From the IMG/VR virus record IMGVR_UViG_3300033074_001078: 64,000 nt of DNA; one strand, written 5' to 3'. The notes under the pieces were generated by a model. The model searched no databases, was not told the DNA's origin, and worked only from the letters and a program-made list of their open reading frames with translations. Both the position numbers and the translations under genes were made by a program. The stretch comes from an uncultured virus (IMG/VR IMGVR_UViG_3300033074_001078) (Duplodnaviria; Heunggongvirae; Uroviricota; Caudoviricetes). Shown piece by piece: positions 3,424 through 58,861 of this stretch (position 1 is the first letter of the stretch; each line of letters starts with the position of its first letter).

Positions 3424-3469
3424 GTGGCCCTCCGGGCTTTGAACCGGGGCAACCGCCCCAACAGAACTT

Positions 3470-3497
3470 AGATTAGCATGGCTTGCGCCAATGTAAA
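3470..3497 (-). promoter_or_regulatory. sigma70-type early promoter P2
   Basis: TTTACA-16 nt-TAATCT. Confidence 0.6.
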
Positions 3498-3615
3498 GCC
3501 CCGGAACGAAGAAATTGTGCATAACTTGACCGGGGCGCTGCCAGCGCTGGCAAGCCCAAGGGGACCAGGGTTCCGGCCGGGGGTGCAAGCACCTTGACCG
3601 CCTGACTGCCGACCG

Positions 3616-3635
3616 CCCTGAGCGATCCTGGCGAG
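3616..3635 (-). repeat. dispersed 20-bp element, copy A
   Basis: CTCGCCAGGATCGCTCAGGG on the minus strand; exact copies at 25237, 38797 and 56543. Confidence 0.95.
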
Positions 3636-3639
3636 TCGC

Positions 3640-3673
3640 AAAAAGCCGCCCCGGTGTTTAGCCGGGGCGGCTT
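3640..3673 (-). terminator. rho-independent terminator
   Basis: AAGCCGCCCCGG/CCGGGGCGGCTT stem followed by a T-tract on the minus strand. Confidence 0.8.
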
Positions 3674-3700
3674 GCTGGCGGTTAGCTTTGTTTGGCCTAG

Positions 3701-4036
3701 TTAGGTCAGGCCGCGCCGCTTGGCTTCAGCGGCGATGCGCGCCAGGGCGTCGTCACCCCGTTTGTCGAAGGCGGCAAACTCAGCTTCGATCTCAGCCGCC
3801 CCGGCGTTGTTCTTCAAGCCGGTTTCGATGCGCTCAAGCTGCTCGGTCAGCTCTTTCATTTCACCGTCAACCCGTTGGGCTGCGTCGGCGCCAGCGGTTG
3901 CCAGCGTGCCAGCTTTCACAATCACGTTCAGCACCTTTTCGGCCAAGCCATCCTTGGGCAACAGCCCAAGGTCGCGTGCCATTTTCAGCACCGTGATTGC
4001 CTTGTCCGCTACCATCAGAATCATTGCGATGTTCAT
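3701..4036 (-). CDS. helical protein, possible lysis accessory
   Basis: 111-aa ORF, hydrophobic N-terminus, follows the lipoprotein gene. Confidence 0.55.
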   Translation of the reverse strand: MNIAMILMVADKAITVLKMARDLGLLPKDGLAEKVLNVIVKAGTLATAGADAAQRVDGEMKELTEQLERIETGLKNNAGAAEIEAEFAAFDKRGDDALARIAAEAKRRGLT

Positions 4037-4066
4037 GTTGATGTTCCTTGCGTTGTCGCGTTGGCG

Positions 4067-4609
4067 TTACGGCTGTTGTTGAACGACTGCGGTGAGCACC
4101 GTGCCAGCTGAGTTGAGTTCAGCGTTGGCTTCGTCAACCGTTGCCGGATCACCACGCGCGCCGACGATTGCACGTTGCAACGTCGCCAAGTCCGTCTTCA
4201 ACTGCGTAAGCACTTGCGTCAGGCGAAAGGCGCTTTGCGTTGCCGTGGCCAGAAGCGCCGTCTGCTCTTCAAGCCCTGCGTCGCGTGCTCGTTCGTAGGC
4301 GACGCGCGCGCGGCGGTATTCGAGCGCCGTGGTGCGCGCCAAGTCAGCGGACGATTTCGCAATGGGCGCAGCGCGTGCAATGGCCAGCACCACGCGGTCA
4401 GGCGTCTCGGGATTCTCCGCGAGTGTAGCTGCTTCTTCGAGCGCGATAGTGATCAGCCCGTATGCCGCCAGAACGTGCGTGTCTGGTTGTGTAGCCACTG
4501 CAAACGGATTGGACACTTCGGCGTCGAGACCGAATGTTTGACGCACCATGCCGCAACCGCCAAGCGATAGCGATACCGCAAGCGCAACAGCGATAAACAG
4601 TTTCTTCAT
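4067..4609 (-). CDS. lipoprotein, possible spanin component
   Basis: MKKLFIAVALAVSLSLGGC signal II/lipobox, then an Ala-rich helical body. Confidence 0.6.
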   Translation of the reverse strand: MKKLFIAVALAVSLSLGGCGMVRQTFGLDAEVSNPFAVATQPDTHVLAAYGLITIALEEAATLAENPETPDRVVLAIARAAPIAKSSADLARTTALEYRRARVAYERARDAGLEEQTALLATATQSAFRLTQVLTQLKTDLATLQRAIVGARGDPATVDEANAELNSAGTVLTAVVQQQP

Positions 4610-4668
4610 TCCAGTTCCTCCTATAGGAGCCAGCTCTGTAGCATGAAAGGCTTCTAGCGCCAATGCTT

Positions 4669-11667: not shown

Positions 11668-12045
11668 TTAAGCCGGATAGCGAATGTGAATGAGCGTGGT
11701 CAAATCGTCTTCGATCATTTGCAGATCGGCCGCTGTTTTCCAGGTGAAGACCCTGGACATAATCGACGCCTCCTTAGGTTCAAAGGGAAACAAGAACTTG
11801 ATGAGCAGGTCCATTTCAACGCGCGCCGTGTTGCTGTAGTTGACGACGCGCTCAACTTCGCGCACCTTCTGTAGGAAGTGCAGCGCCTTGTCCAAGTCTT
11901 GCTTGCCGTTCTTTTGCGCGTGGCGCGAAATGTATTTTGTCACCTGAGCTTCAAGGTACGGGATCGAGCAGTCAACCACGAAATCCCAATGCTGATAGCC
12001 CTTGCGATAGTGATCGCCGCCAACCTGTCGGTCGTTCGCGCCCAT
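11668..12045 (-). CDS. DUF3310 family, putative nucleotide kinase
   Basis: QVGGDHY...QHWD...KYISR...KNGKQDLDKA. Confidence 0.8.
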   Translation of the reverse strand: MGANDRQVGGDHYRKGYQHWDFVVDCSIPYLEAQVTKYISRHAQKNGKQDLDKALHFLQKVREVERVVNYSNTARVEMDLLIKFLFPFEPKEASIMSRVFTWKTAADLQMIEDDLTTLIHIRYPA

Positions 12046-12618
12046 TTAGTCCTCCATAACTTGGCGAAACATTGCACCAGCGCCGATTGGAAGCAATTCA
12101 TGCTTCGGTGGAACACCGGCCTTAAGCGTTAGCATCTTAAACAGCCGGTCGGCCGGTGCAGGGAGTTCCGACATTGAAAGGTAGAAGGCGATTTCTTCCT
12201 CGACCTCACGCGCGAATTGGTTGCCCTGCAACCGCTGTTCGATTGCCCAAAGGTAGAGCTCAAGGCGATCGACCGCCTTGAGCTTGTCGTACTGGTCGCC
12301 GGTGAGGTTCGACAGATCGGCGACACCGTACCGCTCGTTCACGCGCTCTTCGATGCCTTCGAGGAGCTCGCGCGTGTTGGTGTAACGGATCGTTGGTGAA
12401 GGGATGTCACCAACCACGGCTTCGGCCACGTCATGCGTCAGCACTGCAAGCGCCATACTAGGGAACTCATCCGGCCAAAGCGCATGGAACAACATAGCCG
12501 CGCCCCATGAGTGCTCAGCAACGCTATAGACGCCGGTGATTTGCACGTTATGACAGCGTCGCACACGTCCGCCGGCTCGCACTTGAATAACGCGGAAGAG
12601 TAGATCATGCTCACTCAT
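12046..12618 (-). CDS. HD-domain nucleotide phosphohydrolase
   Basis: SVAEHS, LTHDVAEAVVGDIPSP and KAVDRLE (YfbR-like). Confidence 0.88.
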   Translation of the reverse strand: MSEHDLLFRVIQVRAGGRVRRCHNVQITGVYSVAEHSWGAAMLFHALWPDEFPSMALAVLTHDVAEAVVGDIPSPTIRYTNTRELLEGIEERVNERYGVADLSNLTGDQYDKLKAVDRLELYLWAIEQRLQGNQFAREVEEEIAFYLSMSELPAPADRLFKMLTLKAGVPPKHELLPIGAGAMFRQVMED

Positions 12619-13654
12619 AGGAAACCCCGTCATCGGCCTTCGCAAGCCATTTGCTGAAACGCAAGTCGATCCACTGATAGGCCACAGCCTTCCAGTCCCA
12701 CGACGTTATCTGTGACGCAATTTCCTTCGCGCCGATATAGCGGTCTTGACCACGGTTCTTCTTATAGTGCTTGAAAGCGCACAACATTGGGATGACCACG
12801 CCGCTGAGGAACGGGTCGGTCGCCGCAATCTTGCTGTTTTCGTTGATGACCGCTTGGAGTTCCATGTCCCATTGCGCCTTGGGTACGCTCATCAGCGGTA
12901 CTGGAGGCGGCGAACCAGGGTAAGGCGAGCTCGGCTGCGTGTAGGGCGGCGCAACGCAATGGATTCCAATGGTACGAATCAGCTCGAAGTGTGGTTCGTA
13001 AATGTGGAAGTCGTCGCTCACTTGCGCGTAGTAACCGCACTCGCGGCCCAAGGAGGCGGCGATGTACTCCTGCAACATGCTGAAGTGAACAGCGTTCGCG
13101 CCGTATGCACCCCAGACAATGTCGTTCGACCGGCAGAACACGGTCATGCAGAGTTTTTCGTTTATGACGCGGAAGTGCGCGATCATGTTGCATGGCACGT
13201 CCAAGCCGCCGCTTGCGCCTTTGATGAGGTCTTCGCGTGGATCCCACATGCCAAGCACCACGCGCCGGTCATTTGGGTTTTCATCAAGCTGCTTGATGCA
13301 CTGCTCAAGCTGGTCGTATCCAAAGTATTTGCGCCAGCGCCAGCCATACGCGCCCCAAAGGACAGAGCCGTTGTCCGAGTACGTTTTCATATTCGAGGCG
13401 TAGTAAGAAACCCCGTCAACGTCATTGCGCCCTAGCAGCATCCACAGGCTTTCAAACAGGTGGAAGAATGGGTTCGCGTCGCGCTGCGGCCAAAACAGAA
13501 CGCGCTCGGTTGGGTTTGAATAAACCGTGGTGACAGGACCAGGGCTGGTCTTCACCTTGCCGTTGCGTGACTTCAGCTCAATGCCGTAGTCGCGCAAGTA
13601 AATCAGCCCTTCGGGCAGTGCGTCGTGAACATTGCGAACGTTGATAACGTGCAT
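12611..13654 (-). CDS. thymidylate synthase homolog, probable dUMP hydroxymethyltransferase
   Basis: AYGWRWR, DRRVV, catalytic DVPCN and RSNDIVWGAYGAN; start MHVINV at 13654 after GGAGG. Confidence 0.85.
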   Translation of the reverse strand: MHVINVRNVHDALPEGLIYLRDYGIELKSRNGKVKTSPGPVTTVYSNPTERVLFWPQRDANPFFHLFESLWMLLGRNDVDGVSYYASNMKTYSDNGSVLWGAYGWRWRKYFGYDQLEQCIKQLDENPNDRRVVLGMWDPREDLIKGASGGLDVPCNMIAHFRVINEKLCMTVFCRSNDIVWGAYGANAVHFSMLQEYIAASLGRECGYYAQVSDDFHIYEPHFELIRTIGIHCVAPPYTQPSSPYPGSPPPVPLMSVPKAQWDMELQAVINENSKIAATDPFLSGVVIPMLCAFKHYKKNRGQDRYIGAKEIASQITSWDWKAVAYQWIDLRFSKWLAKADDGVSYE

Positions 13655-13685
13655 GATAGAACCTCCCAATAACTGCAACGATGCC

Positions 13686-14525
13686 TTAAGCCGCGCGCCG
13701 TTGTAAACCCTGCTCGTAAGCCTTCTTCCACTGGATAGTGACGTCGGTTCGCTCGGCGAACTCTGTCGCTTGCTTTGAGCCAGCCGCTTGCTCTGCGGCC
13801 TTGCTGCGCTTGATCTTGGTTGACACGATGCCGGGGTGCAGCGCTGCCATCGCGTGCGCCGCTGCGTCCTGCATTTCGTGTGTTCGATAGTCGGAGCAGC
13901 CGCCACCCTTCTGCGTGTAGCTCTGGTCTTGTGCGTACTTATAGACGCACACATTAGGCAAGCCGCGCTCTAGTAGTTGAAGTAGCACGTCGAAGTCTTC
14001 CATAACCGGAACGCGGTTGTGCAAGCACTCGTTGAACGGCTCCGTTTGAAACGCCAGGAAGCGCACGAGGCGCGCGTTTTCTTCGGTGAAGACGTCCTTG
14101 CGGTTGTTCGACATACGCATCGAAATTCCGGCTGCGGCGTACTTGCCTTGAAGCAGCTCGTCAACGTACTCGAACATCTCCCGCGTGTCGTCGTCGGTGC
14201 AGTTCGTCAGCTGCCATGCTTTAGGGTCATCAAAGTCCTTACGCCGTGCAAAGCGTAAGTCGTCGTCGAGCATGACAAACCGCTTCACGCCCGCTTGGGC
14301 TGCGTTCTTGCCGATCCATTCGCGTGTGGCGGCGATGCCTTTCGCGGCCGTCCCAAGGATGCGCGTGTTCTGGCGTAGGTGGCGTTCACCGGCTGCAAGG
14401 TACTTGCTCACCTCATCGTTCGGCACGACGATGTTGACCGGGATATCGTCGGGAATCTTCGACCAGACGTTGGTCGCCCAAAGGTGCGCGCGTGAGCGCG
14501 ACGGTATGTAGATCTTCATTTCCAT
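13686..14525 (-). CDS. GT-A glycosyltransferase (TAGT/GREB1/base-J glucosyltransferase-like)
   Basis: IYIPSRSR, IAATREWI, MLDDDL (DxD), EDFDVLLQLL and GGGCS. Confidence 0.72.
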   Translation of the reverse strand: MEMKIYIPSRSRAHLWATNVWSKIPDDIPVNIVVPNDEVSKYLAAGERHLRQNTRILGTAAKGIAATREWIGKNAAQAGVKRFVMLDDDLRFARRKDFDDPKAWQLTNCTDDDTREMFEYVDELLQGKYAAAGISMRMSNNRKDVFTEENARLVRFLAFQTEPFNECLHNRVPVMEDFDVLLQLLERGLPNVCVYKYAQDQSYTQKGGGCSDYRTHEMQDAAAHAMAALHPGIVSTKIKRSKAAEQAAGSKQATEFAERTDVTIQWKKAYEQGLQRRAA

Positions 14526-15529
14526 CACTGATCCTCCCAAGGGCGCTTGACTGGTTGTGTTAACGGGCCATCGGCCAGCGCGGCGGCGATAGCAGCGTTA
14601 TCATCTGCGCTGCACTCTAGCAAGGTTTCCTTCCCCTTCTTATCGGGGAGTAGCCCAATGCGATACGACGTGGCGTTGCAGCCATCGCAAGGGCCGAAGT
14701 CGCGCTGGCCATGATAGAGCTTCTTGCGCGCTGCGGTGAAGCGTTCATTGAGCCAGAGTTCCTCTAGCGGCGTGCTTGCAATGTTGCCGATGACGTACTC
14801 GCCGCGCCAGTCGTTGCAGCAAAGCGCAATCCCACCGTCCCACCGGAAGCTGAGCTCACGGAACGGTTTCGCACACCGCTTGCCAGCTTGACTCCAGTCT
14901 TTGGGAGCACCGGCTCCAGCATGGTTGTTGAGGTCGGCGTGTGTACCACTGGTGTTGAGGTCTATGGGCCGGATGAAGATCAACCGCTTGTATGACTTGC
15001 GCTGGTGCGGGTTGCCTTCGTCATCGTCGGGATAGTTGAATAGTCGAATGTCGTTACCAACGCCGTTCTTAAGCGACTTGATGCCCTTCAAGTTCGCAAG
15101 CCTTAGCTCCTTGCAGATGGACGCCTTTAGCTTGCCGACGATGGGGATGTCTTGATACTCATCGATCGCCAGCGTGTCAAGCCCTGCATCAAGGCAAGCG
15201 AGCATTGAAAACGGCGCTCCCTTGAGCAAGCCGCCACCGTTCGACGTCATCATAATGTGGTGGCGCGGTAGGTGCTTGCGGAACATCGCAATGATTTCGA
15301 GGCATTGCGGGTTCATGGTTGGTTCGCCGTGCATGGCAAACTCAATGCGCGATGTCCAGCCGCAGCGCTTGATTTCGGTAGCGATGCGCTCAGCCAGATC
15401 GACGGTGAGGAGCTGGAAATTGTTTTCCTTGCCGCGTATGCCGTTCAACCCGCAGAACGTGCAACGCAGATTGCAGCCCTCAGCCATTTCAACCTGAATG
15501 GCAAAGGGTGCTTCTTGTTCATACGTCAT
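14525..15529 (-). CDS. radical SAM enzyme with SPASM/twitch domain
   Basis: CNLRCTFC, HGEPT, MTSNG; C-terminal CAKPF...CCND...IGNI...CDGC. Confidence 0.9.
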   Translation of the reverse strand: MTYEQEAPFAIQVEMAEGCNLRCTFCGLNGIRGKENNFQLLTVDLAERIATEIKRCGWTSRIEFAMHGEPTMNPQCLEIIAMFRKHLPRHHIMMTSNGGGLLKGAPFSMLACLDAGLDTLAIDEYQDIPIVGKLKASICKELRLANLKGIKSLKNGVGNDIRLFNYPDDDEGNPHQRKSYKRLIFIRPIDLNTSGTHADLNNHAGAGAPKDWSQAGKRCAKPFRELSFRWDGGIALCCNDWRGEYVIGNIASTPLEELWLNERFTAARKKLYHGQRDFGPCDGCNATSYRIGLLPDKKGKETLLECSADDNAAIAAALADGPLTQPVKRPWEDQ

Positions 15530-16469
15530 GTGTCAGCTCCATATATTGCTGAGCGATCTTTGCCGAATTGTGATTGGCTTGCAAGTACTCCCAAGCCGGT
15601 GTCGGGTCGTATGGCTCAGGGTCGCGTGCCAGCACTGCGGCAAGTTCTTCAGCGCTGCTGACCCCAACCGCCAATGAACGCATGATGCCAGGGTACGACA
15701 ACCACTTGGAATGAGCGATGATGCGGCAACCGCAGTCCATGGCTTCGAGGAAGGTGTATTGCGTACCGCCTCCGTCATCCTTAAACACGGTGAGGTCCAC
15801 AAGGTGATAGGCGTCGCGCAGGAAGGCGTGTCCACCGTTGAAGGTGACAGGGTAGCCCCGGCCCTTGCCAAGCTCTGGATGCTTGAGCCTGAACCAGCGT
15901 TCGACCTCGCCCAACAGTTCAACGCGCCGGTTGGGTTCAAGCGCCACGTTAGCCTCCAACACCAGTTCCGAGTTCTTTATGGAGCTGGTGCGCGCCGTGC
16001 TGACCGCGTGCTTAGGCCGCTCGTGCGCTGGCAACAGGCTTGACGCGTCCAAGTCCGATGCGTAGGGGTGCGGGATCAGCGTTGCCTTGGGCATGGCCAG
16101 CAAGCCGGTTTCACGTATGCCAATGACCCGCTCAGCACAACCGGCTTCAGGCCAGTGTGGATAGAGCTTAAACTCGTTAGGATCGTGAAACACGCGCCAG
16201 AAGTCCGGCCGCTTGAGTAGGGTGTAAACCGTTTCAATCGGCATGTGTGGGTCGCCGGAAGCGAGTAGCAGCGGCCCATCCAAATCCATGGCGTCTTCGA
16301 GGCTGAAGATTTGGTACTTGAAGTCCAGTGCGCCTTGCCTTGGGTTGCGCTCAGTGCGCGCGCCAATGCGTATGACCCGCGCGTTTTCGCCTAGCACGCG
16401 CGCCAAGTGTGCAACGTAAGTGACCGCCCCGCCCAATCGGTACGGAGCTTGATTGATGATGTTGAGCAT
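15519..16469 (-). CDS. GT-B glycosyltransferase
   Basis: N-terminal GGAVTYVAHL loop, ARTSSIKN and GGGTQYTFLEAMDCG. Confidence 0.72.
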   Translation of the reverse strand: MLNIINQAPYRLGGAVTYVAHLARVLGENARVIRIGARTERNPRQGALDFKYQIFSLEDAMDLDGPLLLASGDPHMPIETVYTLLKRPDFWRVFHDPNEFKLYPHWPEAGCAERVIGIRETGLLAMPKATLIPHPYASDLDASSLLPAHERPKHAVSTARTSSIKNSELVLEANVALEPNRRVELLGEVERWFRLKHPELGKGRGYPVTFNGGHAFLRDAYHLVDLTVFKDDGGGTQYTFLEAMDCGCRIIAHSKWLSYPGIMRSLAVGVSSAEELAAVLARDPEPYDPTPAWEYLQANHNSAKIAQQYMELTHDV

Positions 16470-16480
16470 GTGTTCGGCCT

Positions 16481-17404
16481 TTAGGTTTTCGGGCGGTAGC
16501 GGTTGCGGAGTGAAGTGGCTGCACCAGTGCGGACGCGTTCATATTTATCCCATTCACAAAGCTGGAATTGGATATCATGTAGCGTGAGCGTCCCGTACTT
16601 GGAAGGCCAGTACTGCCAGCGTAGCACATGCACCATCTGCATGATCTCGTAGAACGTGGCCTCACCGCCGAGCGCAGTGCTTGGGATATCAACATTCTTG
16701 CGTGTGGCCAGCAAGCGCGCAACACCACGACGAGCGCCTGGACCGCATGGTGTCCAGGTTTCTTCATCGCGTATGCCGTTCGGCCACATGGCTGGACAGA
16801 ACATGGTGTCGAGCAGCACTTCCTTCGTCATAAAGCCGCTGCCCTTGAAGCCTATGAACATACGCATTTCGGTCGCCGTTTGTTCCCAGCTCCTCGACTG
16901 CTCAGCAACCGCAGTGACAGCGCCAGCGCCTTCCCACAGAGGCAATAGGATTTCGTTCGCTACGAAATCCGGCTTGCTTCCCGTCTTGCCGTTCATGGTG
17001 ATCATGTAGGCGCTGGTGAACACCTTGTCGCCTGACTTGCGTATGGTGGCGGCGACGTCGATCAAGCACTTCGGGTCGAACTCATCGATGAAACCCAAAG
17101 CGCGGGCGAACCGCTCCGTCCCAAAGTAGCGGAAGGTCGCGCACGTTATCAGCGCCGTGCGCGCCGTGGCGTGCGAGGCGGCTGCGTCGTATATCTCCTT
17201 GAAGGCTTGCGTGGTGCGGTCGTGGACGCGCCTCACGTTGGTGAATTTGAACTCGCGCAGTATGGGGTCATCCGTCCACGGGAACGGCTCTCCAACCGAG
17301 CGCTTGACACGTATGGTTTCGCGTTCGACCATGAACGCATAGAAAGCGCGCACGCGCGCCTGAAACTCAGGCGCTGCGGCAACGAGGTCGGGGGCGTGGC
17401 TCAT
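16481..17404 (-). CDS. 5-hmdU DNA kinase-type protein (aGPT-Pplase clade 1)
   Basis: ERETIR...PWTDDPILREFKFTNVRRVHDRTT, GPGARRG and IQFQLCEWDKY. Confidence 0.82.
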   Translation of the reverse strand: MSHAPDLVAAAPEFQARVRAFYAFMVERETIRVKRSVGEPFPWTDDPILREFKFTNVRRVHDRTTQAFKEIYDAAASHATARTALITCATFRYFGTERFARALGFIDEFDPKCLIDVAATIRKSGDKVFTSAYMITMNGKTGSKPDFVANEILLPLWEGAGAVTAVAEQSRSWEQTATEMRMFIGFKGSGFMTKEVLLDTMFCPAMWPNGIRDEETWTPCGPGARRGVARLLATRKNVDIPSTALGGEATFYEIMQMVHVLRWQYWPSKYGTLTLHDIQFQLCEWDKYERVRTGAATSLRNRYRPKT

Positions 17405-25322: not shown

Positions 25323-25919
25323 TTAGTCGGACGGGACCGGGGCGTTGGTGTCGGTTTCCTCGATGCGCGCCAACCAGCCTATGAGCTTGCCGTCGGTGCG
25401 GCGCATGGGGCTCGCAACGCAGAAAACCTTGTGACATGTTCCGTCGGGGCGCTGCACACGGTAGCGGGCTTCAAAGCCGCGCTCTTCCTCAACCGCGCGC
25501 TTCCACTCAGTCACAATCTTTTCGCGGTCATCGGGGTGGATCGTGATAATCCAACCGTTACCGGTCAAGTCGAATATCTGCCTATCGACCATCCGCAGAT
25601 AGGCGCGATTCGCACGAATGAGCTCACCGCTGGTGTTCTTCTCAACGATTGCCGTGCGAACCGTGTCGAGCGAGCTCCATTGGCGTGCTGTTAGGTGCTC
25701 CATCGTGTTCGTAAACTCGATCATCGTGTTGTTGATGATCTGAACATCGGACACTAGATTGTCCATGCTGCTGAGCGTGGTTCGCGTTTTCTCAACGAGG
25801 GGCTTGAACACCTTGGTCCACACACGCCAAAGCGCCGCAGCAATAACGCTGACCGCAGCGATAAAGCCTGCCCACCACTCGACGATGCCGAGGATGACTT
25901 CGTTGGTGAAGAGGTCCAC
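25323..25919 (-). CDS. N-terminal TM plus PAS/PAC domain protein
   Basis: TM about aa 9-33; ANRAY...GNGW...IHPDDRE...YRVQRPDG...DGKLIGW. Confidence 0.8.
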   Translation of the reverse strand: MDLFTNEVILGIVEWWAGFIAAVSVIAAALWRVWTKVFKPLVEKTRTTLSSMDNLVSDVQIINNTMIEFTNTMEHLTARQWSSLDTVRTAIVEKNTSGELIRANRAYLRMVDRQIFDLTGNGWIITIHPDDREKIVTEWKRAVEEERGFEARYRVQRPDGTCHKVFCVASPMRRTDGKLIGWLARIEETDTNAPVPSD

Positions 25920-25921
25920 TG

Positions 25922-26173
25922 TTACTTCAGGCTGATGCGTGAAGAGGCTTTGAACCGCCCGTAAATGGTGGTCACGCCACCGAACACACCGATCATCGAC
26001 ACGATGACCATCGGCGCTTCGGAATTGAGGATATCAGCTTGCTCGGTTGTCAACCAACCAGCGACTGAACCAACGCCCGAAAGCACGGACATCAAGCCGC
26101 CCCAAAGAGCAACGCTCTCCCAAGGCTTTTTCACCTGAGCCGGCGAAGGAGCTGGCGTTTGCGTGTCTGTCAT
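25922..26173 (-). CDS. holin-like 2-TM protein
   Basis: KKPWESVALWG...TIYGRFKA; two hydrophobic helices and a basic C-terminus. Confidence 0.6.
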   Translation of the reverse strand: MTDTQTPAPSPAQVKKPWESVALWGGLMSVLSGVGSVAGWLTTEQADILNSEAPMVIVSMIGVFGGVTTIYGRFKASSRISLK

Positions 26174-26232
26174 CTGAACCTCCAGTATCGTTTATCTAGG
26201 GTCAGCCTTAAACCTTGACCAGCGCCTAGTTT

Positions 26233-26478
26233 CTAGGTGAAGACGTGCGCGACCCATTCTTCTATCGTGTACCGAACTTGATAGGCGCTGTTCTGGTCAC
26301 TGATCGTCAACGTTCTAAAGGGAGCGCTGCCACCCTTGGCTATGATTTGACCGGTGAAGTTATGCGAGCGCCACAAATTATATCGTCGGTCGCCGAAACC
26401 GTTCGGCGGCTCAGGCGAGCCGTCACTAACCGTGACGGTCGTTCCGAGTTCCAGCGCGAAGGCTTCTTCGAAGGTCAT
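26233..26478 (-). CDS. hypothetical protein (possible tail-fibre accessory)
   Basis: 81-aa ORF with ATGA overlap. Confidence 0.5.
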   Translation of the reverse strand: MTFEEAFALELGTTVTVSDGSPEPPNGFGDRRYNLWRSHNFTGQIIAKGGSAPFRTLTISDQNSAYQVRYTIEEWVAHVFT

Positions 26479-26795
26479 ATAATCAGTCCGTTCGTGGTTC
26501 CTGTGTTAGTGACGGTGACTGTATGCCCATTCTTTCGGATGCAATAGCCCGCGACGCCTTGTGAGCCGCCAGCCGTGACATCAGCCGTTCCTGCAACGCC
26601 GTTCGCGCCATAGCCGCCGCCAGCACCGCCGTCACCTGGAGTCGTCCCATTGCCGCCAGCACCGCCGCCGCTGGTAGTCCCATCAGCGCCGTCAACCGGT
26701 GCGCCAGAGGTTGGCGTGCCAGTTCCCTTCAAGCCTTTCGGCCCATTCGGTGCGCCGCCGCCGCCGCCTGATCCTGGTCTATACGTTATCGTCAT
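26475..26795 (-). CDS. Gly-rich ORF, apparent continuation of the tail-tip C-terminal domain
   Basis: starts 2 nt after the upstream stop and continues its Gly-rich pattern. Confidence 0.55.
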   Translation of the reverse strand: MTITYRPGSGGGGGAPNGPKGLKGTGTPTSGAPVDGADGTTSGGGAGGNGTTPGDGGAGGGYGANGVAGTADVTAGGSQGVAGYCIRKNGHTVTVTNTGTTNGLII

Positions 26796-26797
26796 GG

Positions 26798-29700
26798 TTA
26801 GTTCTCGTTACCACCGCCGCCGCCACCGCCGCCACCGCCGCCACCGGCGTCATCGTAGTAATAGCCGCCGCCACCGCCGCCGCCGCCGCCGCCGCCCTGT
26901 ACGGTCGCTCCGGTGTTGATGTTGATGGTCATTGGCAAGCGGCAATAGATAGCGTCACCGCCGATACCCCCATTGCCGCCGACAGCACCTGAAGAACCGT
27001 TGCCACCTTTAGCTCCGCCACCGCGCACAATGCCGCCGCTCTTCACAGTCAGCGTGAGCGTGATGGTGTAGTTTGAAGTCGGCCATGTACCTGAGTCAAT
27101 AGCAATGCCACCATCAGGCGCGCCAGCAAGACCGGTGATTGTGATGCCACTTTCAACTTCAAACGTGATCGTCGCGTCTGAAGAGCCAGTGTAACCAGCG
27201 GCGTTCGCAACGTCGCGCAAGTTTACGCCGACTGATGAACTGCTCAGGTCGATAGTGGCGCTGAACGCTGAAGGAGGCGTTCCAGGCTCACCAGGGGTTC
27301 CCGGTGCAGCGATGACATCCCAATAAGCGTTCGCTTCAGCCGTACCGGTTGGGCCGGTTTCAGCAACGTGCGTGAGCGACGAGTAGCCTGTACCGCCTGT
27401 GAAGCTTTCGATGCCGGTTGCGAAGTAGTAGCCAAGGCCGACAACGCCATTGGCATCGACGCACTCGATGTAATCGACCTCCATTGTATGCGACACGCCG
27501 CTGGACATGCGGAACTGTATCTGCGTGATCGTGTTTGAAGTCCAGTCAGTACCGCCCGCCGTGAGCGCGCTCATGTCGAATTCAAGCTCGAACCATTCGT
27601 TCACGGCGTACGGATCAGGCTGAGCGGCTGATGCATAGTAGCTGTCACTAAAGCCGTGACCGCCCGTGACATAACGAATGCGACCCTGCCAAGCTGGCGT
27701 TCCTGTCGTGTAACGCGCACGCACACGGACTTTCGTGTAGGTCGCACCGGAAAGCGACAAGCCGCTTGGCGAACTGACGGCTGGTGGCGGAGTGTCATCC
27801 GCTGCGACAGCCTTCAGCACGTTTTGGGTTGAGTTCACTTTGCAGCGGTACGAGCCACCATTGAACGTGACCGCGTCATCGCGGTAGTAGGTATTCGCAG
27901 CGCTATGAGCACCGCGCCAGTTCGGGCTCGTCAACAGAGTCGGCGTTGACCATGTGTTAACCAACACACCGCCGCTCGTCTTCAAAGCAGTCGAAGCCCA
28001 AAGAGCAGCGGTTCCCGTTGGGAACGACGTGGTCCAACCAGCCGGTGAGTTCCCGCTTGGCTTCGCGGGCGGTCCAATGCTGCGCTTGTATCGAACTTCT
28101 TGCTTGGGTGCCGTGCCACCTGAAGGGCCGAACGCCAAGTCGCTCAGTTGACCACCGACCGTGTAGAACGATGAGTCGAAGTAAAGCCGCAGCGAAGTTG
28201 AAGCTGACGTGACAGTGCGCTTCAACACACCGTTGACGTAGTAGCCAATGGAGCCACCGTCATACACGATGCTGAAGATGTCATTCGCAGCATACGACTC
28301 AGGTGAACCGCCATTGTCATAGACCTTGACGCCGCTCTCCCAGATTTCCCACTTGGCATCTGTCTTAAGATAGAAGGCGAAATCAATCCCGGTGTAGTTC
28401 GCGTCCGTTGCTGGATCGCTGTTCAAACCAACGTAGATCGCCGCGTTGGATTGAATAGGCTTCACAGACATGAACGCGCCGCCAACGTAGCTCTCGTTGG
28501 AGTAGCCTTGCGCGTCCCAAGCGCCGGAGCCGCTTTGCTTCTTAAGGCCGCGCCCCGTCAGCGTCATGGTGCTGGTTTTCACAATCGAAAACAGGTTGCC
28601 GCCTGAGCGCTGGCGATAGACCGTCATGGTGTCAACCAGCGAGCCAAGCGTTGCCGTGATCGCAACGCTTTCGTTCGTGCCGAAGTCAGCTACCGCAAGC
28701 GCACGAGTGTCGCCGCTTCCGGTGAGCGTAACGGTTGGCGAAGAAGACCACACCACCGTTCCGCCCGCTGCGTTCTGGCGATCGACAGTGAAGTTGATAG
28801 TTTGCGCGGCCGGATTCGCCGAGTTATCAGGGTCGAACGTGAAGTTCTGGTTGTCAGCACGCAAGCTGATGGTCTGCGCGTTCACACCGAAGCGCGCCTT
28901 GGATATGGTGTAGGTGCGATCGATGAGGAAGCCACCGTAATTCGCACGGAACACCGCTTGGCCAAGGTCAGCTGACATGCTGGCAACGGTATAGACGCCG
29001 GTCGTAGCATTGATGCTGACGTCAACGCCGGTTTCACTCAACACACTGTAAGCGACGCTGTAGCCGGTCGTCACGTCGGTGATGCCGTTATAGACCTTGA
29101 ACGTGCCACCGGCTGAACTGAAGTCACCACCAGTGCCATCAGCGGCGGTTGGTACGACCATCGCCTCGTTCGTCAGGTAGCCATACTTCAGCGGCTTCAA
29201 GCCGTTCGTGCCAGTCGTAACGCCGGTGACAGTGACCCAATCGCCGACGACACCGAAGACCGTGGTATGGCGCATTCGCACGTCGTACGTCGTACCAGAC
29301 AGCGTTTCAAACGTGACTGACGTCGCGCCACTTTGCCCAATGGGAGCAACGATCCACTCAGAATCCGCCGCGCGTTTGTATTCAACGTCAGTGCGCTGGT
29401 GAATGTTCCCAGGTGCAGTCCAGCTTGCCTTGATGCCGTCGCGAATATCATCAGTCGCGCCGCCGCTGCCACCGGTGAGCGTCGCAGCGATAGCGGCTTG
29501 CCCTGTCACTGCCAGCTTGTCTTGAATACTAAAGCCGGGGTTGGTATTGTCAGTTAGCGAGTTGATCGTACCAGCGACCCAGATGTTAGCGTGAACTTCA
29601 CGCAACGTAAGAGCGATGATGCCTTCAGTCGAGACCTCATAACCAATGATGCGGAACTTCTTGTTCGTAAAGGCATAGCGCGGGAAGTTAACTTGGATGA

Positions 29701-31090
29701 TGTCCCATAGCTTTACGAGTAGCCCTTTCATGTTCACTGGTGAACGGAAGACTCCTTGGTAGCGTCCTTCATTCAGCAGGATGCGCGACAGCTTCTGCGC
29801 TTGGGCTGGATCTTGCACTGCACCGTAGGTGACAGATATCTGGCGCGCGAACCCGTCAATAGTTTCGTAAGACGCATCGGTGACGGTTGGAAAAGACTTC
29901 AGTTGGTAGAGCTTAGTCGGATCGACGAACTGGCCAGCAACAGAGTTGAACCGATCCTTAATTTCGTTAGCTGGAACCCATTCCACCTGACCCATGAAGT
30001 CATCAGGGCCAAACGTAGCTGACACGACAGCCGTATCGTCAACGCTGACGAAGAAGCTGTACCGACCACCAACGTCGAGGAGCTTTCCATAGCAGGCTTG
30101 CTCAATCATCTGGCGGTTGGTTTCGTGCGCGTCGCCGGTGCTGAGAATCAAGTCGCCTTCATAGCTTTGCGTGGCGCAATCATTCGCAGCCGTTATGAAG
30201 GACGCAAAGTCAATGTCATCTGGGTCCACACCCATGCCTGCAACCAGCGTCGTTCCAATCTTCCAGCCCAACAGATACCAGAGCATCTGCAGAGCGGGAT
30301 TGCGGCCGATGTCAGTTGAGCCGTCATTATACTGCCAAGTCGTTTGATCATCAGCCCTGTGCGATCCAGAGCCGCCGCGCGTGCTGTCCTTACGAGGGTC
30401 ATAGACAAGCGCTCCCTTGACGATTTGTGTGTAGCGCACCGGGAAGCCGCGCGGGAATTTACCAGTGTCGTAGGTATAACGAAGGATGAAATACGCGCAT
30501 CCTTTGAAGTAGTGATTGGTCGGATTCCAGTACGCTCCAGCCGCGCCCAAGGAGTAACCGACACCGGCTGCACCTTCTGTCACCGTGCGGCGCACGAGTA
30601 GGCTTCCGTATTGGCCGGTGTTGACACCAGTGCCAGCGTTGAAGTTGACAGCCTCTTCTTCGAGGTAGAGCTGCTCAAACGAATAGATCTTGTGTGTGGC
30701 AACAGCAATGACTTCGTCGTACTTCTTATTGTCAGTGCCGAACGTTTCCCAGTAACGCATGTCGTTACCGCCAACCGTTTGACCGAACACGATCTTGCGA
30801 AAGGCTTCAGGTTCAAGCGACTTGTTCAGGCGCTGCGTCGTTGCCGAGTTGATACTTGGTAGCTTGGGCTTAGTCAGCTCGCTTAATAGAACTGCGCCAA
30901 TACCAAAAGCCGCACCAGCAACCGCCGCAGCAAGCCAGACCGGAACGAACGTCATACCGGCTGACAACAGCACCGACGCGGCGATGTTCGTGAGCGTGGC
31001 AACGATACCGCCACCACCGATTGGACCAAGCACCACAATCGCAACGAAGATCGCCACGAATGTGAGAACTGTTTTGACAACCTTGCCCAT
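26798..31090 (-). CDS. tail tip / host-specificity protein (gpJ-like)
   Basis: 1430 aa after the NlpC-like gene; VKGALVYDPR, NPAL, FN3-like, lectin-like and Gly-rich regions. Confidence 0.85.
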   Translation of the reverse strand: MGKVVKTVLTFVAIFVAIVVLGPIGGGGIVATLTNIAASVLLSAGMTFVPVWLAAAVAGAAFGIGAVLLSELTKPKLPSINSATTQRLNKSLEPEAFRKIVFGQTVGGNDMRYWETFGTDNKKYDEVIAVATHKIYSFEQLYLEEEAVNFNAGTGVNTGQYGSLLVRRTVTEGAAGVGYSLGAAGAYWNPTNHYFKGCAYFILRYTYDTGKFPRGFPVRYTQIVKGALVYDPRKDSTRGGSGSHRADDQTTWQYNDGSTDIGRNPALQMLWYLLGWKIGTTLVAGMGVDPDDIDFASFITAANDCATQSYEGDLILSTGDAHETNRQMIEQACYGKLLDVGGRYSFFVSVDDTAVVSATFGPDDFMGQVEWVPANEIKDRFNSVAGQFVDPTKLYQLKSFPTVTDASYETIDGFARQISVTYGAVQDPAQAQKLSRILLNEGRYQGVFRSPVNMKGLLVKLWDIIQVNFPRYAFTNKKFRIIGYEVSTEGIIALTLREVHANIWVAGTINSLTDNTNPGFSIQDKLAVTGQAAIAATLTGGSGGATDDIRDGIKASWTAPGNIHQRTDVEYKRAADSEWIVAPIGQSGATSVTFETLSGTTYDVRMRHTTVFGVVGDWVTVTGVTTGTNGLKPLKYGYLTNEAMVVPTAADGTGGDFSSAGGTFKVYNGITDVTTGYSVAYSVLSETGVDVSINATTGVYTVASMSADLGQAVFRANYGGFLIDRTYTISKARFGVNAQTISLRADNQNFTFDPDNSANPAAQTINFTVDRQNAAGGTVVWSSSPTVTLTGSGDTRALAVADFGTNESVAITATLGSLVDTMTVYRQRSGGNLFSIVKTSTMTLTGRGLKKQSGSGAWDAQGYSNESYVGGAFMSVKPIQSNAAIYVGLNSDPATDANYTGIDFAFYLKTDAKWEIWESGVKVYDNGGSPESYAANDIFSIVYDGGSIGYYVNGVLKRTVTSASTSLRLYFDSSFYTVGGQLSDLAFGPSGGTAPKQEVRYKRSIGPPAKPSGNSPAGWTTSFPTGTAALWASTALKTSGGVLVNTWSTPTLLTSPNWRGAHSAANTYYRDDAVTFNGGSYRCKVNSTQNVLKAVAADDTPPPAVSSPSGLSLSGATYTKVRVRARYTTGTPAWQGRIRYVTGGHGFSDSYYASAAQPDPYAVNEWFELEFDMSALTAGGTDWTSNTITQIQFRMSSGVSHTMEVDYIECVDANGVVGLGYYFATGIESFTGGTGYSSLTHVAETGPTGTAEANAYWDVIAAPGTPGEPGTPPSAFSATIDLSSSSVGVNLRDVANAAGYTGSSDATITFEVESGITITGLAGAPDGGIAIDSGTWPTSNYTITLTLTVKSGGIVRGGGAKGGNGSSGAVGGNGGIGGDAIYCRLPMTININTGATVQGGGGGGGGGGGYYYDDAGGGGGGGGGGGGNEN

Positions 31091-57693: not shown

Positions 57694-58152
57694 TCATTTG
57701 AAACCAGCCTTGATGAGCGCATTGATATATTCGCTTGACGTAACCAAGTGCGACGACGACTGCACCTTGCCGCCACCTACGCCATACGCCACTTCGATTC
57801 CGCGCTGCTTACAAACGAAAGCTTCAGGTATCGGCACGTCATCAGGGCTACGATCACCACCGTTGGCGAAGATGTCGGGGAGGAGCATGTTGAGTTCCTT
57901 GCACACGCTCATATCGGTAGGCTCTTTCGAGTGCAGGCTTAGGAACACCTTATCGACCACGTCGATCGCCTCTATGATTTCAACCCGCTCGTCCTCTGAC
58001 ATGAAGACCCATCCCTTCTTCTGCCTGAGCCAGTTATCGTTATTGACGACGACGATCAGCCTGTCACCAAGCGCCCGCGCTGCTTGTAGAAGCCGCACAT
58101 GCCCAACGTGAAGCGGGTCAAAGCCGCCTGACACCATGACCGTCTTACTCAC
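57694..58152 (-). CDS. cytidylyl/nucleotidyltransferase (TagD/RfaE-II-like)
   Basis: SGGFDPLHVGH, VVVNND, ERVEII, ANGGDR and KVQSSS. Confidence 0.88.
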   Translation of the reverse strand: MSKTVMVSGGFDPLHVGHVRLLQAARALGDRLIVVVNNDNWLRQKKGWVFMSEDERVEIIEAIDVVDKVFLSLHSKEPTDMSVCKELNMLLPDIFANGGDRSPDDVPIPEAFVCKQRGIEVAYGVGGGKVQSSSHLVTSSEYINALIKAGFK

Positions 58153-58487
58153 GTTACAATTCCTTCCAGCTTCGACTCTTCGATACGCAACCACGTTTCC
58201 CGCGCTTGGGCTTCTTGCTGTTGTGCTGCGAGCTGCATGAACTCCGACATGACAAGCAACAGTTCGATCGCCTTCGCCAGCTGGAACGCCACCAGCGCCA
58301 GCATGATGAAGAGCAACAGCACCGCCGCTAACAGGTAGTCAGCCGAAACAACGGCCTCCACCGCCATCCAGGTAGCGACGGCCGTCACAACGAACGTGAG
58401 CGCAGTGCCAGCCGTGCGCCAGCTCAGCTCGATTTCAATGGTCCAGTCAGACCAGCCAAGGAAGCTGTCGGTCTTGTGAAGCTTCAC
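58149..58487 (-). CDS. 2-TM membrane protein coupled to the endolysin gene
   Basis: two hydrophobic helices; GTGA overlap. Confidence 0.55.
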   Translation of the reverse strand: MKLHKTDSFLGWSDWTIEIELSWRTAGTALTFVVTAVATWMAVEAVVSADYLLAAVLLLFIMLALVAFQLAKAIELLLVMSEFMQLAAQQQEAQARETWLRIEESKLEGIVT

Positions 58488-58861
58488 TTTGGATACGCCT
58501 TCCACGGGAGCTGCCAGTGTGGTCCGTCCTTAAACGTCTTCCAGTCGCCGCCCCATTCGATCAGCACGTTTTCAGCCGCCGCAGCGGCCTTGATGATGGG
58601 AGCGGCCTTGTGATATAATGGCCAGTCCCAGCGGAGTTCGTCACCGAGCATAACGCCAAGGTCAACCGCATGGCCTGTCAGGTGGCGCGAGCGCAGTGTG
58701 GTTGAAGCACCTTTCTTAACGAGTTCACGTTGCCGCTCAATCGTTCGCAGCCCTTCCAACACCATCATGTTGAGCTTGGCGGTTGGCATGGCGTCGAGGC
58801 GTGCAAGCACGCGCAAGAGGTCAGGGTGAATGCCAGCAGCGCGGCGCATCTTCTGTATCAT
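58484..58861 (-). CDS. endolysin, M15 family peptidase
   Basis: EGLRTIERQ, SRHLTGHAVD and WGGDW...DGPHWQL. Confidence 0.9.
   Translation of the reverse strand: MIQKMRRAAGIHPDLLRVLARLDAMPTAKLNMMVLEGLRTIERQRELVKKGASTTLRSRHLTGHAVDLGVMLGDELRWDWPLYHKAAPIIKAAAAAENVLIEWGGDWKTFKDGPHWQLPWKAYPK

Follow-up and report, generated by a model that had tools for sequence, protein, structure and literature searches.

The 198-aa protein encoded at the end of the late gene block of this uncultured tailed phage carries one transmembrane (TM) segment, a long helix and a PAS domain, and we propose, with a probability of roughly 0.45, that it is a LysF1b-like one-TM lysis regulator, partner of a two-TM holin and gated by a PAS domain that senses a ligand in the cytoplasm. 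That it has a role of some kind in lysis is a distinctly safer statement, which we regard as likely. Its domains, its predicted topology, its viral family, its position in a lysis slot and the relation of the family's N-terminal module to lysis genes are results of computation.

Burst size is set by lysis time, which is usually explained by holin accumulation, by antiholins and, in T4, by a periplasmic superinfection signal. If the proposal is right, the moment of lysis would be set by an intracellular ligand or redox cue, beyond holin dose or an outside superinfection signal, and such a one-component cytoplasmic sensor placed on a lysis regulator would let a lytic phage read host physiology and time its exit. 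Somewhat more tentatively, many unrelated tailed phages may have equipped a LysF1b-like membrane regulator with a fused PAS sensor in the cytoplasm and would thereby make up a widespread and undescribed class of lysis timers. The family appears to be an undescribed, widespread sensor-regulator fusion, the sensing role of which we infer; a literature search covering titles, the starts of abstracts and few subscription papers returned no PAS-bearing phage lysis protein, and supplementary tables could list some. The breadth of the family, its matched sensor-bearing and sensor-free forms, and a system of just two small genes make the question easily testable.

The gene pair and its genome setting

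The window, that is, the whole stretch of 64,000 nucleotides that was analysed, spans nearly all of a 64,061-base virus record. By PHROG annotation, the phage is a siphophage. Its head, connector, tape-measure and tail genes all lie on the minus strand, and its late block ends with a tail fibre gene, two small ORFs, the 83-aa gene and the 198-aa gene, in this order. The features of the pair and of its surroundings are as follows.

25323..25919, minus strand: 198-aa protein with one TM, a long helix and a PAS domain, GTG start (ORF, Pfam, AF2, Foldseek and family evidence)
25842-25898, minus strand: TM segment of the 198-aa protein, residues ~8-26 (hydropathy)
25356-25652, minus strand: PAS domain of the 198-aa protein, residues 90-188 (AF2 model)
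25922..26173, minus strand: two-TM protein of 83 aa whose C-terminus is basic, probably a holin, ATG start (hydropathy; homologs after endolysins)
26179..26183, minus strand: ribosome-binding site (GGAGG) of the 83-aa gene, 5 nt from its ATG (upstream sequence)
26798..31090, minus strand: tail fibre or central tail protein, upstream of the pair and the last of the large late genes (phrog_5616 tail fiber, E 1.4e-85)
58484..58861, minus strand: endolysin of the M15 peptidase type, encoded 33 kb away from the pair (phrog_465, E 2.3e-45; Peptidase_M15_4, E 1.4e-11)
58149..58505, minus strand: 118-aa hydrophobic and coil protein overlapping the endolysin end, rival holin candidate (position and sequence)
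3701..4612, minus strand: possible spanin-like pair, a lipoprotein-like ORF at ~4067-4612 and a 111-aa ORF at 3701-4036 with a hydrophobic N-terminus (lipobox by eye)

The most hydrophobic 19-mer of the 198-aa protein covers residues 8-26 (KD 2.1). Because Lys and Arg are absent from the flank that precedes it and three of them occur in the next 15 residues, the protein is predicted to lie N-out/C-in, hence with its PAS domain in the cytoplasm, in agreement with the first-pass annotation, which had drawn the same conclusion from the basic residues after the TM. By the same charge count, Lys and Arg are more numerous behind the TM than ahead of it in 34 of 38 family rows. Furthermore, Pfam assigns PAS_3 to residues 101-183 (E 5.8e-13, 49.4 bits against a cut-off of 25.6), with PAS_4 and PAS also above their cut-offs, as is TIGR00229 in NCBIfam. 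The AF2 model, built from a 38-row alignment (mean pLDDT 93), consists of a single unbroken helix over residues 3-85 followed by a PAS fold over residues 90-188, with a five-stranded antiparallel sheet and flanking helices as in the PAS superfamily, and its top Foldseek match in the PDB is the PAS domain 3lyx (E 7e-9, TM-score 0.79 by target). As read from the sequence, the coil is only moderately charged and ends in the globular PAS domain. Since the C-terminus lies only 10 residues past the last strand, the protein has no output domain; a frameshifted or truncated kinase was ruled out by the full-length stop, which is kept across the 38 rows. The earlier description of a TM/helix/PAS ORF lacking an output domain and starting 2 nt after a two-TM ORF at the end of the late operon is thus borne out by the ORFs and their PHROG context, by both profile collections and by the model, and the structure prediction then proposed did return a PAS fold.

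Only 2 nt separate the stop of the 83-aa gene from the GTG of the PAS gene, and because the latter has no clear ribosome-binding site of its own, its translation is presumably coupled to that of the 83-aa gene. Around the pair, neither a promoter nor a terminator scored above chance. Hydropathy of the 83-aa ORF peaks twice (KD 1.2 for the first, weak peak, and 1.6), and the ORF matches no named holin profile in Pfam, PHROGs or NCBIfam; its best profile match is phrog_29088, of no known function (E 4.8e-4), Pfam gives nothing below E 0.04, and an ESM Atlas match to a Phage_holin_1 cluster (0.88) is no more than a lead. It has no match among cultured phages, finds only itself in the protein collection and none in a genome pattern scan. 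When 401 genomes from the class to which Microvirga belongs (Alphaproteobacteria) were searched at E<=0.01, 10 gave matches, five of which were set aside as long frames or for internal stops, the others being short full-length homologs with 34-37% identity. One of these lies directly after a GH108 endolysin (L380) and two directly after a Hydrolase_2 enzyme (L381 and L382; Pfam), while L383 comes after an ORF that has no Pfam match and L388 after a Mor regulator. As three of the five clear homologs thus come directly after a Pfam-identified endolysin, the 83-aa gene is probably a holin in a lysis slot. Genes for DUF2730, the family of the Mu releasin, are also found at L380 and L383. These homologs do not fix the host, since one class alone was searched.

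The window endolysin is 54-60% identical to phage L-Ala-D-Glu peptidases and, read by eye, has no SAR-type N-terminus. The 118-aa ORF beside it, for which PHROGs and NCBIfam give no match, could encode a second holin, or the true one in place of the 83-aa protein. The ORF pair at 3701-4612, which has no profile match in Pfam or NCBIfam, is possibly a spanin type that profiles do not recognise. Pairs resembling it were also seen in the lysis cassettes at L065 and L383, and the lipoproteins of the window and of L383 show no similarity. The lysis genes of this phage would be scattered over three places.

The capsid protein is 57% identical to those of Pseudomonas phages KPP23/RSP, 54% to Roseobacter RDJL and 46% to the Rhizobium RHph_Y60 type, and the host is probably a diderm proteobacterium. 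KPP23 and RHph_Y60, among the closest cultured relatives by capsid, have an endolysin gene at the end of the tail block, together with spanin-like genes and a gene for a two-TM protein (TM and spanin labels read from translations); RDJL Phi1, whose capsid is the 54% match, has no annotated lysis cassette at its tail end. Two further observations concern other parts of the window. The minus-strand region 11668-17404 holds thymidylate-synthase-like, radical SAM, HD-type phosphohydrolase and nucleotide-kinase-like genes together with genes of no known role, suggesting hypermodified DNA bases. A 106-aa Gly-rich ORF at 26475-26800 (minus strand) weakly matches the Gp38 adhesin, and the preceding tail fibre ends in a Gly run, so that both are possibly a single adhesin tip spread over two frames.

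A divergent viral family with a lysis-cassette module

The top ESM Atlas clusters for the 198-aa protein (score 0.97-0.98) consist of PAS proteins 183-228 aa long, 99-100% of them viral, with 1,142 members in one neighbour cluster alone, and the best matches to its model in a viral fold library are 169-205-aa proteins of uncultured phages annotated 'PAS domain'. Sequence similarity searches retrieved eight distinct homologs, six of which, P0002 and P0094 being the two exceptions, carry a PNGG-S-L-[RK]D-like motif between the TM and the PAS domain. The protein of the window has lost this PNGGSSLRD-type motif, and the NGG is missing as well in P0002, its 69% relative; beyond that nearest relative, family members share no more than 12-32% identity and are thus highly divergent.

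Viral contigs scanned for the PNGG-type motif gave at least 120 loci and 119 motif ORFs. Among the matches listed, 17 of the 119 run on into a PAS domain, the others being mostly TM-coil proteins of 63-145 aa with a few chance matches. Three more pattern scans, the second of metagenomes and the third of genomes, found PAS-bearing ORFs at 28 of 120, 1 of 107 and 2 of 11 loci, partly on contigs already seen. None of the 102 candidates of a first metagenome scan was confirmed, a cellular false positive from the second (107 loci) was dropped as a non-member, and L001/L003, which share 6,899 bases with the window at 100% identity, were left out as non-independent. Long multi-PAS cellular proteins dominated a profile search of 1.84 billion representatives, which yielded only four useful rows. 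PAS-bearing genes occur in small and large tailed phages; some of the scaffolds fall into Bacteroidota and Acidobacteria bins, and other phages have hosts that are probably proteobacterial. No cultured phage with the PAS-bearing form emerged: the 198-aa protein, P0154 and P0093 had no tblastn match in 50,697 phage records, and the L173, L365 and L150 queries gave only short-form or chance matches.

A match in Microcoleus phage My-WqHQDG was rejected as a non-member, being a longer protein beside receiver genes. There (L393, 1934-5024, plus strand), the long protein with its weak family match is followed by two receiver-like proteins and by a coil protein with a C-terminal hydrophobic segment, and the gene group looks like a phage-borne signalling relay. 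Other variants include P0093, a family member of 385 aa that combines a single TM with two tandem modules, each an NG(G/K) linker followed by a PAS domain. In BFVD, several phage proteins 205-240 aa long, annotated either as GAF-domain proteins or as uncharacterised, among them those of Cellulophaga phages phi19:1 and phi18:3, resemble the 198-aa model over most of its length and are possibly parallel TM-sensor fusions; the viral fold matches include the Cellulophaga phage proteins R9ZZL0 and S0A2B2.

The N-terminal module of the family (TM, coil, PNGGSSLRD) also stands alone as a short gene of lysis cassettes. Among the matches listed, each of the 34 non-redundant short members matches phrog_9869, an outcome partly built into their selection, 7 of them also match the holin family phrog_15431, and 12 have a PHROG 'lysis' gene at most 2 ORFs away; further ones, left uncounted, adjoin VanY, SLT or weak NlpC/P60 matches. 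Cultured phages carry the short form as well: mu1/6 gp52 comes after an endolysin and a holin, Sonali gp22 before lysin A and P1312_040 before an amidase, and the neighbours are unannotated in BIM BV-113. Beside short NGG genes and small membrane genes, phrog_32486 recurs (L022, L023, L039, L053, L071) and is probably an unrecognised peptidase endolysin.

In the mycobacteriophages Girr and NormanBulbieJr (PMC13056207), the gene after a two-TM gene encodes LysF1b (DUF2746), which has one TM and N-out/C-in topology and without which lysis is not normal, and a preprint places the D29 homolog LysA2b among tail genes, away from the cassette (bioRxiv 10.64898/2026.08.27.747656). In these sources, LysF1b/DUF2746 proteins have 88-150 aa and a C-terminal cytoplasmic coil that is 30-50% charged, and energy poisons bring about early lysis. 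The short family aligned with a ten-row DUF2746 profile that includes D29 gp30 (LysA2b) at 92.1% in hhalign (E 6.3e-7, 32 columns), with the LRD motifs in register, compared with 2.75% for the reversed control and at most 0.88% for 30 column shuffles. The result depends on the profiles compared: a six-row D29 profile gave 52% with the short family where the ten-row one gave 92%, and the whole PAS-family profile gave 10%, no match, with the six-row D29 gp30 profile. A three-row profile of the window protein and its relatives matched the short family over the TM only (67%), and the 99% match of the PAS family to the short family is partly built in, as the motif had recruited both sets. Pfam searches gave no match to PF10805 (DUF2730) or PF10874 (DUF2746) for the 198-aa protein or for a 9-row family set, nor any direct match to PF10874 for the 13 short members scanned. 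Computational comparison relates the N-terminal module of the PAS family, at the level of sequence, to lysis-cassette genes and, as a probable remote relative, to DUF2746-LysF1b; we propose that the PAS family would work like LysF1b, and the protein of the window is not classed as a DUF2746 member.

Gene neighbourhoods, possible signals and competing readings

Among the matches listed, 27 PAS-bearing loci count as independent (70% identity) and come with flanks longer than 1 kb, five further clusters having no flank. Their neighbours were taken from a simple ORF caller, long ORFs being cut to their first 330-400 residues, and the profile scan covered ORFs of <60 or >450 aa in part. On this basis, a profile-supported endolysin, holin or spanin occurs at 7 of the 27 loci: a Pam3-gp28 holin (L323), an Rz-like spanin (L173), a lysozyme (L189), endolysins (L180, L193 and L065) and an amidase (L369). 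In all seven the lysis gene lies within 1.5 kb of the PAS gene, though 148,919 of the 223,845 flank bases are farther out, and the chance of this is roughly 1e-3 (per-locus fractions multiplied by hand). Near the PAS gene of L365 lie a two-TM gene and what may be a peptidase gene, which no profile confirms. The other 20 loci have no profile-supported lysis gene in the flank read. The survey of TM-PAS neighbourhoods suggested in the first-pass annotation thus upholds its link to lysis in part: endolysin-adjacent homologs of the two-TM gene, the lysis-cassette nature of the N-terminal module and the seven loci speak for it, and strict coupling fails at 20 of 27. At the level of gene context, the link of the PAS family to lysis is real and not universal.

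About 11 of the 27 loci (L004, L008, L031, L041, L057, L148, L150, L161, L172, L191 and L199) lie among terminase, portal, head or tail genes and have no identified lysis gene. They would suit a membrane protein made late for some other purpose, for instance to anchor head or packaging assembly to the membrane or to block superinfection, beside which the holin gene of the window would be incidental, and the loss of the NGG motif from the window copy would suit it too. We hold this reading to be improbable. Where lysis genes are present they crowd close to the PAS gene, and D29 LysA2b, described in the preprint as a proven one-TM lysis regulator, sits itself amid tail genes, so that PAS loci outside cassettes are compatible with a lysis role. 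At L199, a TM-NGG-PAS gene (3445-4011, minus strand) lies between a tail-type gene and terS/terL, which is the place of the holin in T7-like phages.

As to what the PAS domain of the proposed regulator might sense, no known cofactor signature is plainly present. LOV domains, which bind FMN, are recognised by an NCRF-type motif with the flavin-bonding cysteine; none of the 38 family rows has it, and a LOV photosensor was ruled out. The conserved residues of the family are, moreover, generic: the GxGW and H+11-W sets occur in 50 and 57 of 60 cellular PAS_3 domains, and the invariant W123 is likewise found in ordinary ones. According to PMC10468136, heme-PAS domains of FixL and DosP have a conserved His on F-alpha, Aer2-type ones an invariable His at E-alpha, and the FAD-binding domains of NifL, MmoS and Aer a Trp on F-alpha. 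No column from 129 to 145 has more than 3 His among the 38 rows. With respect to the Aer2-type His, H128 is present in 18 of the 38 rows and is part of an HP motif that also occurs in 54 of the 60 cellular relatives. W139, on the long helix in 36 of them, aligns one position off the Trp of 3ewk and is shared by 57 of the 60 ordinary cellular PAS_3 domains. By these residues, the PAS domain of the window carries no LOV, FixL-type heme or clear FAD signature, H128 and W139 being ambiguous between a cofactor site and the ordinary PAS_3 pattern.

This result would also fit a lysis regulator whose PAS domain binds no ligand and acts as an oligomerisation cap, or as a docking site for a further protein of phage or host, imposing a fixed delay in place of a sensed signal. 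All the lysis evidence applies to it just as well, the divergence of the family agrees with it, and there is a precedent in phiKZ, where gp143 binds the cytoplasmic domain of the holin, according to PMC12894885. We nevertheless consider it rather unlikely, since a scaffold seems unneeded when 102 of the 119 motif ORFs, among the matches listed, have no PAS domain and the short form is complete; furthermore, the PAS domain is kept intact across many unrelated phages and was once duplicated with its NGG linker (P0093), and the unbroken helix from PAS to TM in the AF2 model is the usual layout for signal relay.

The D-I-T motif, the linker motif of kinase and cyclase PAS domains, has a counterpart in 3 of the 38 family rows and in 52 of the 60 cellular relatives, and the tail past the last PAS strand is 8-46 residues long across the family. 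Because there is no C-terminal output and D-I-T is lost, any signal must leave by the N-terminal helix to the membrane; relay up this helix is what the modelled architecture suggests.

In a quick tree of PAS domains alone (105 columns; viral label of the P-numbered rows assumed), 40 family and 60 cellular domains are split by one branch of moderate support (SH-aLRT 91), and the 198-aa protein clusters with homologs bearing an ARQW motif (support 85). This bears on the suggestion, made with the first description of the gene, that the protein is a decoy for host sensor kinases. On this reading, its PAS domain would heterodimerise at the membrane with a host sensor kinase or diguanylate cyclase and blunt late host signalling. 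The PAS type is indeed that of cellular kinases and cyclases, NCBIfam gives weak matches to a diguanylate cyclase and to EspA, long multi-PAS proteins dominated the profile search, and five loci outside late blocks adjoin replication or nucleotide genes (L133, L210, L198, L146 and L083). The separate branch fits one old viral lineage better than host partners being mimicked again and again, the linker motif is gone and the N-terminal module is that of lysis cassettes; the decoy gained no positive support, and we regard it as highly improbable.

In the two-part inner-membrane lysis switch that we favour, the 83-aa two-TM protein would be the holin-type partner and the 198-aa protein an N-out/C-in regulator of LysF1b or releasin design with a PAS domain fused to the cytoplasmic end of its helix. 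Both would be made late and build up in the inner membrane, where the regulator may oligomerise through its 60-residue helix and either activate or restrain the two-TM protein, much as LysF1b acts on LysF1a. Bound in the PAS domain, a small ligand from the cytoplasm (a metabolite, a cofactor or a redox state) would shift the register of the helix that reaches the membrane, and this shift would advance or delay hole formation and the release of the far-encoded M15 endolysin.

Comparison with known lysis systems

The PAS domain of the 198-aa protein shares its fold and core residues with the PAS_3-type domains (GxGW/HPDD) of bacterial kinases and diguanylate cyclases, from which it differs by the absence of an enzyme output and of the D-I-T linker, by its lysis-type phage tether and by its separate group in the tree.

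T4 holin T has a GAF-like fold; a literature search covering few subscription papers returned no paper on a holin with GAF. The first-pass annotation had cited this holin as a precedent, which holds as an analogy and not as kinship: the 198-aa protein is an analogue, not a homologue, of T. Class III holins matched its model in the viral fold search at E 0.057 and 0.14, not significant, and membership of this T4-like class was ruled out by the N-out/C-in bias of the family. As described in PMC12894885, class III holins (T4 gpT with RI/RIII, phiKZ gp142 with gp143) likewise have one TM and a soluble domain serving as regulatory input. In the same source, T and gp142 are N-in/C-out, opposite to the prediction for the 198-aa protein, and the large domain of T is periplasmic and binds the antiholin, and the cytoplasmic domain of gp142 is N-terminal; the PAS domain of the window is C-terminal and predicted to be cytoplasmic.

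The Mu gp25 releasin (DUF2730; PMC9239132) is closer in design, being a membrane-tethered cytoplasmic lysis accessory of type I, N-out/C-in topology, which is common to the 198-aa protein, and DUF2730 genes share cassettes with homologs of the two-TM gene of the window (L380, L383). On the other hand, the releasin has no PAS domain, the 198-aa protein has no DUF2730 match and the window endolysin, by eye, has no SAR-type N-terminus.

With respect to LysF1b, the protein of the window differs in its length of 198 aa, its C-terminal PAS domain, a coil that is not highly charged, the lack of the NGG/LRD motif and of a direct PF10874 match, and a host that is probably a diderm proteobacterium. Nevertheless, LysF1a/LysF1b of Girr and NormanBulbieJr (PMC13056207) and LysA2a/LysA2b of D29 are arranged like the pair of the window, a two-TM gene followed by a one-TM gene, and LysF1b, LysA2b and the 198-aa protein are alike in their N-terminal TM, predicted N-out/C-in topology, basic residues after the TM and long cytoplasmic helix.
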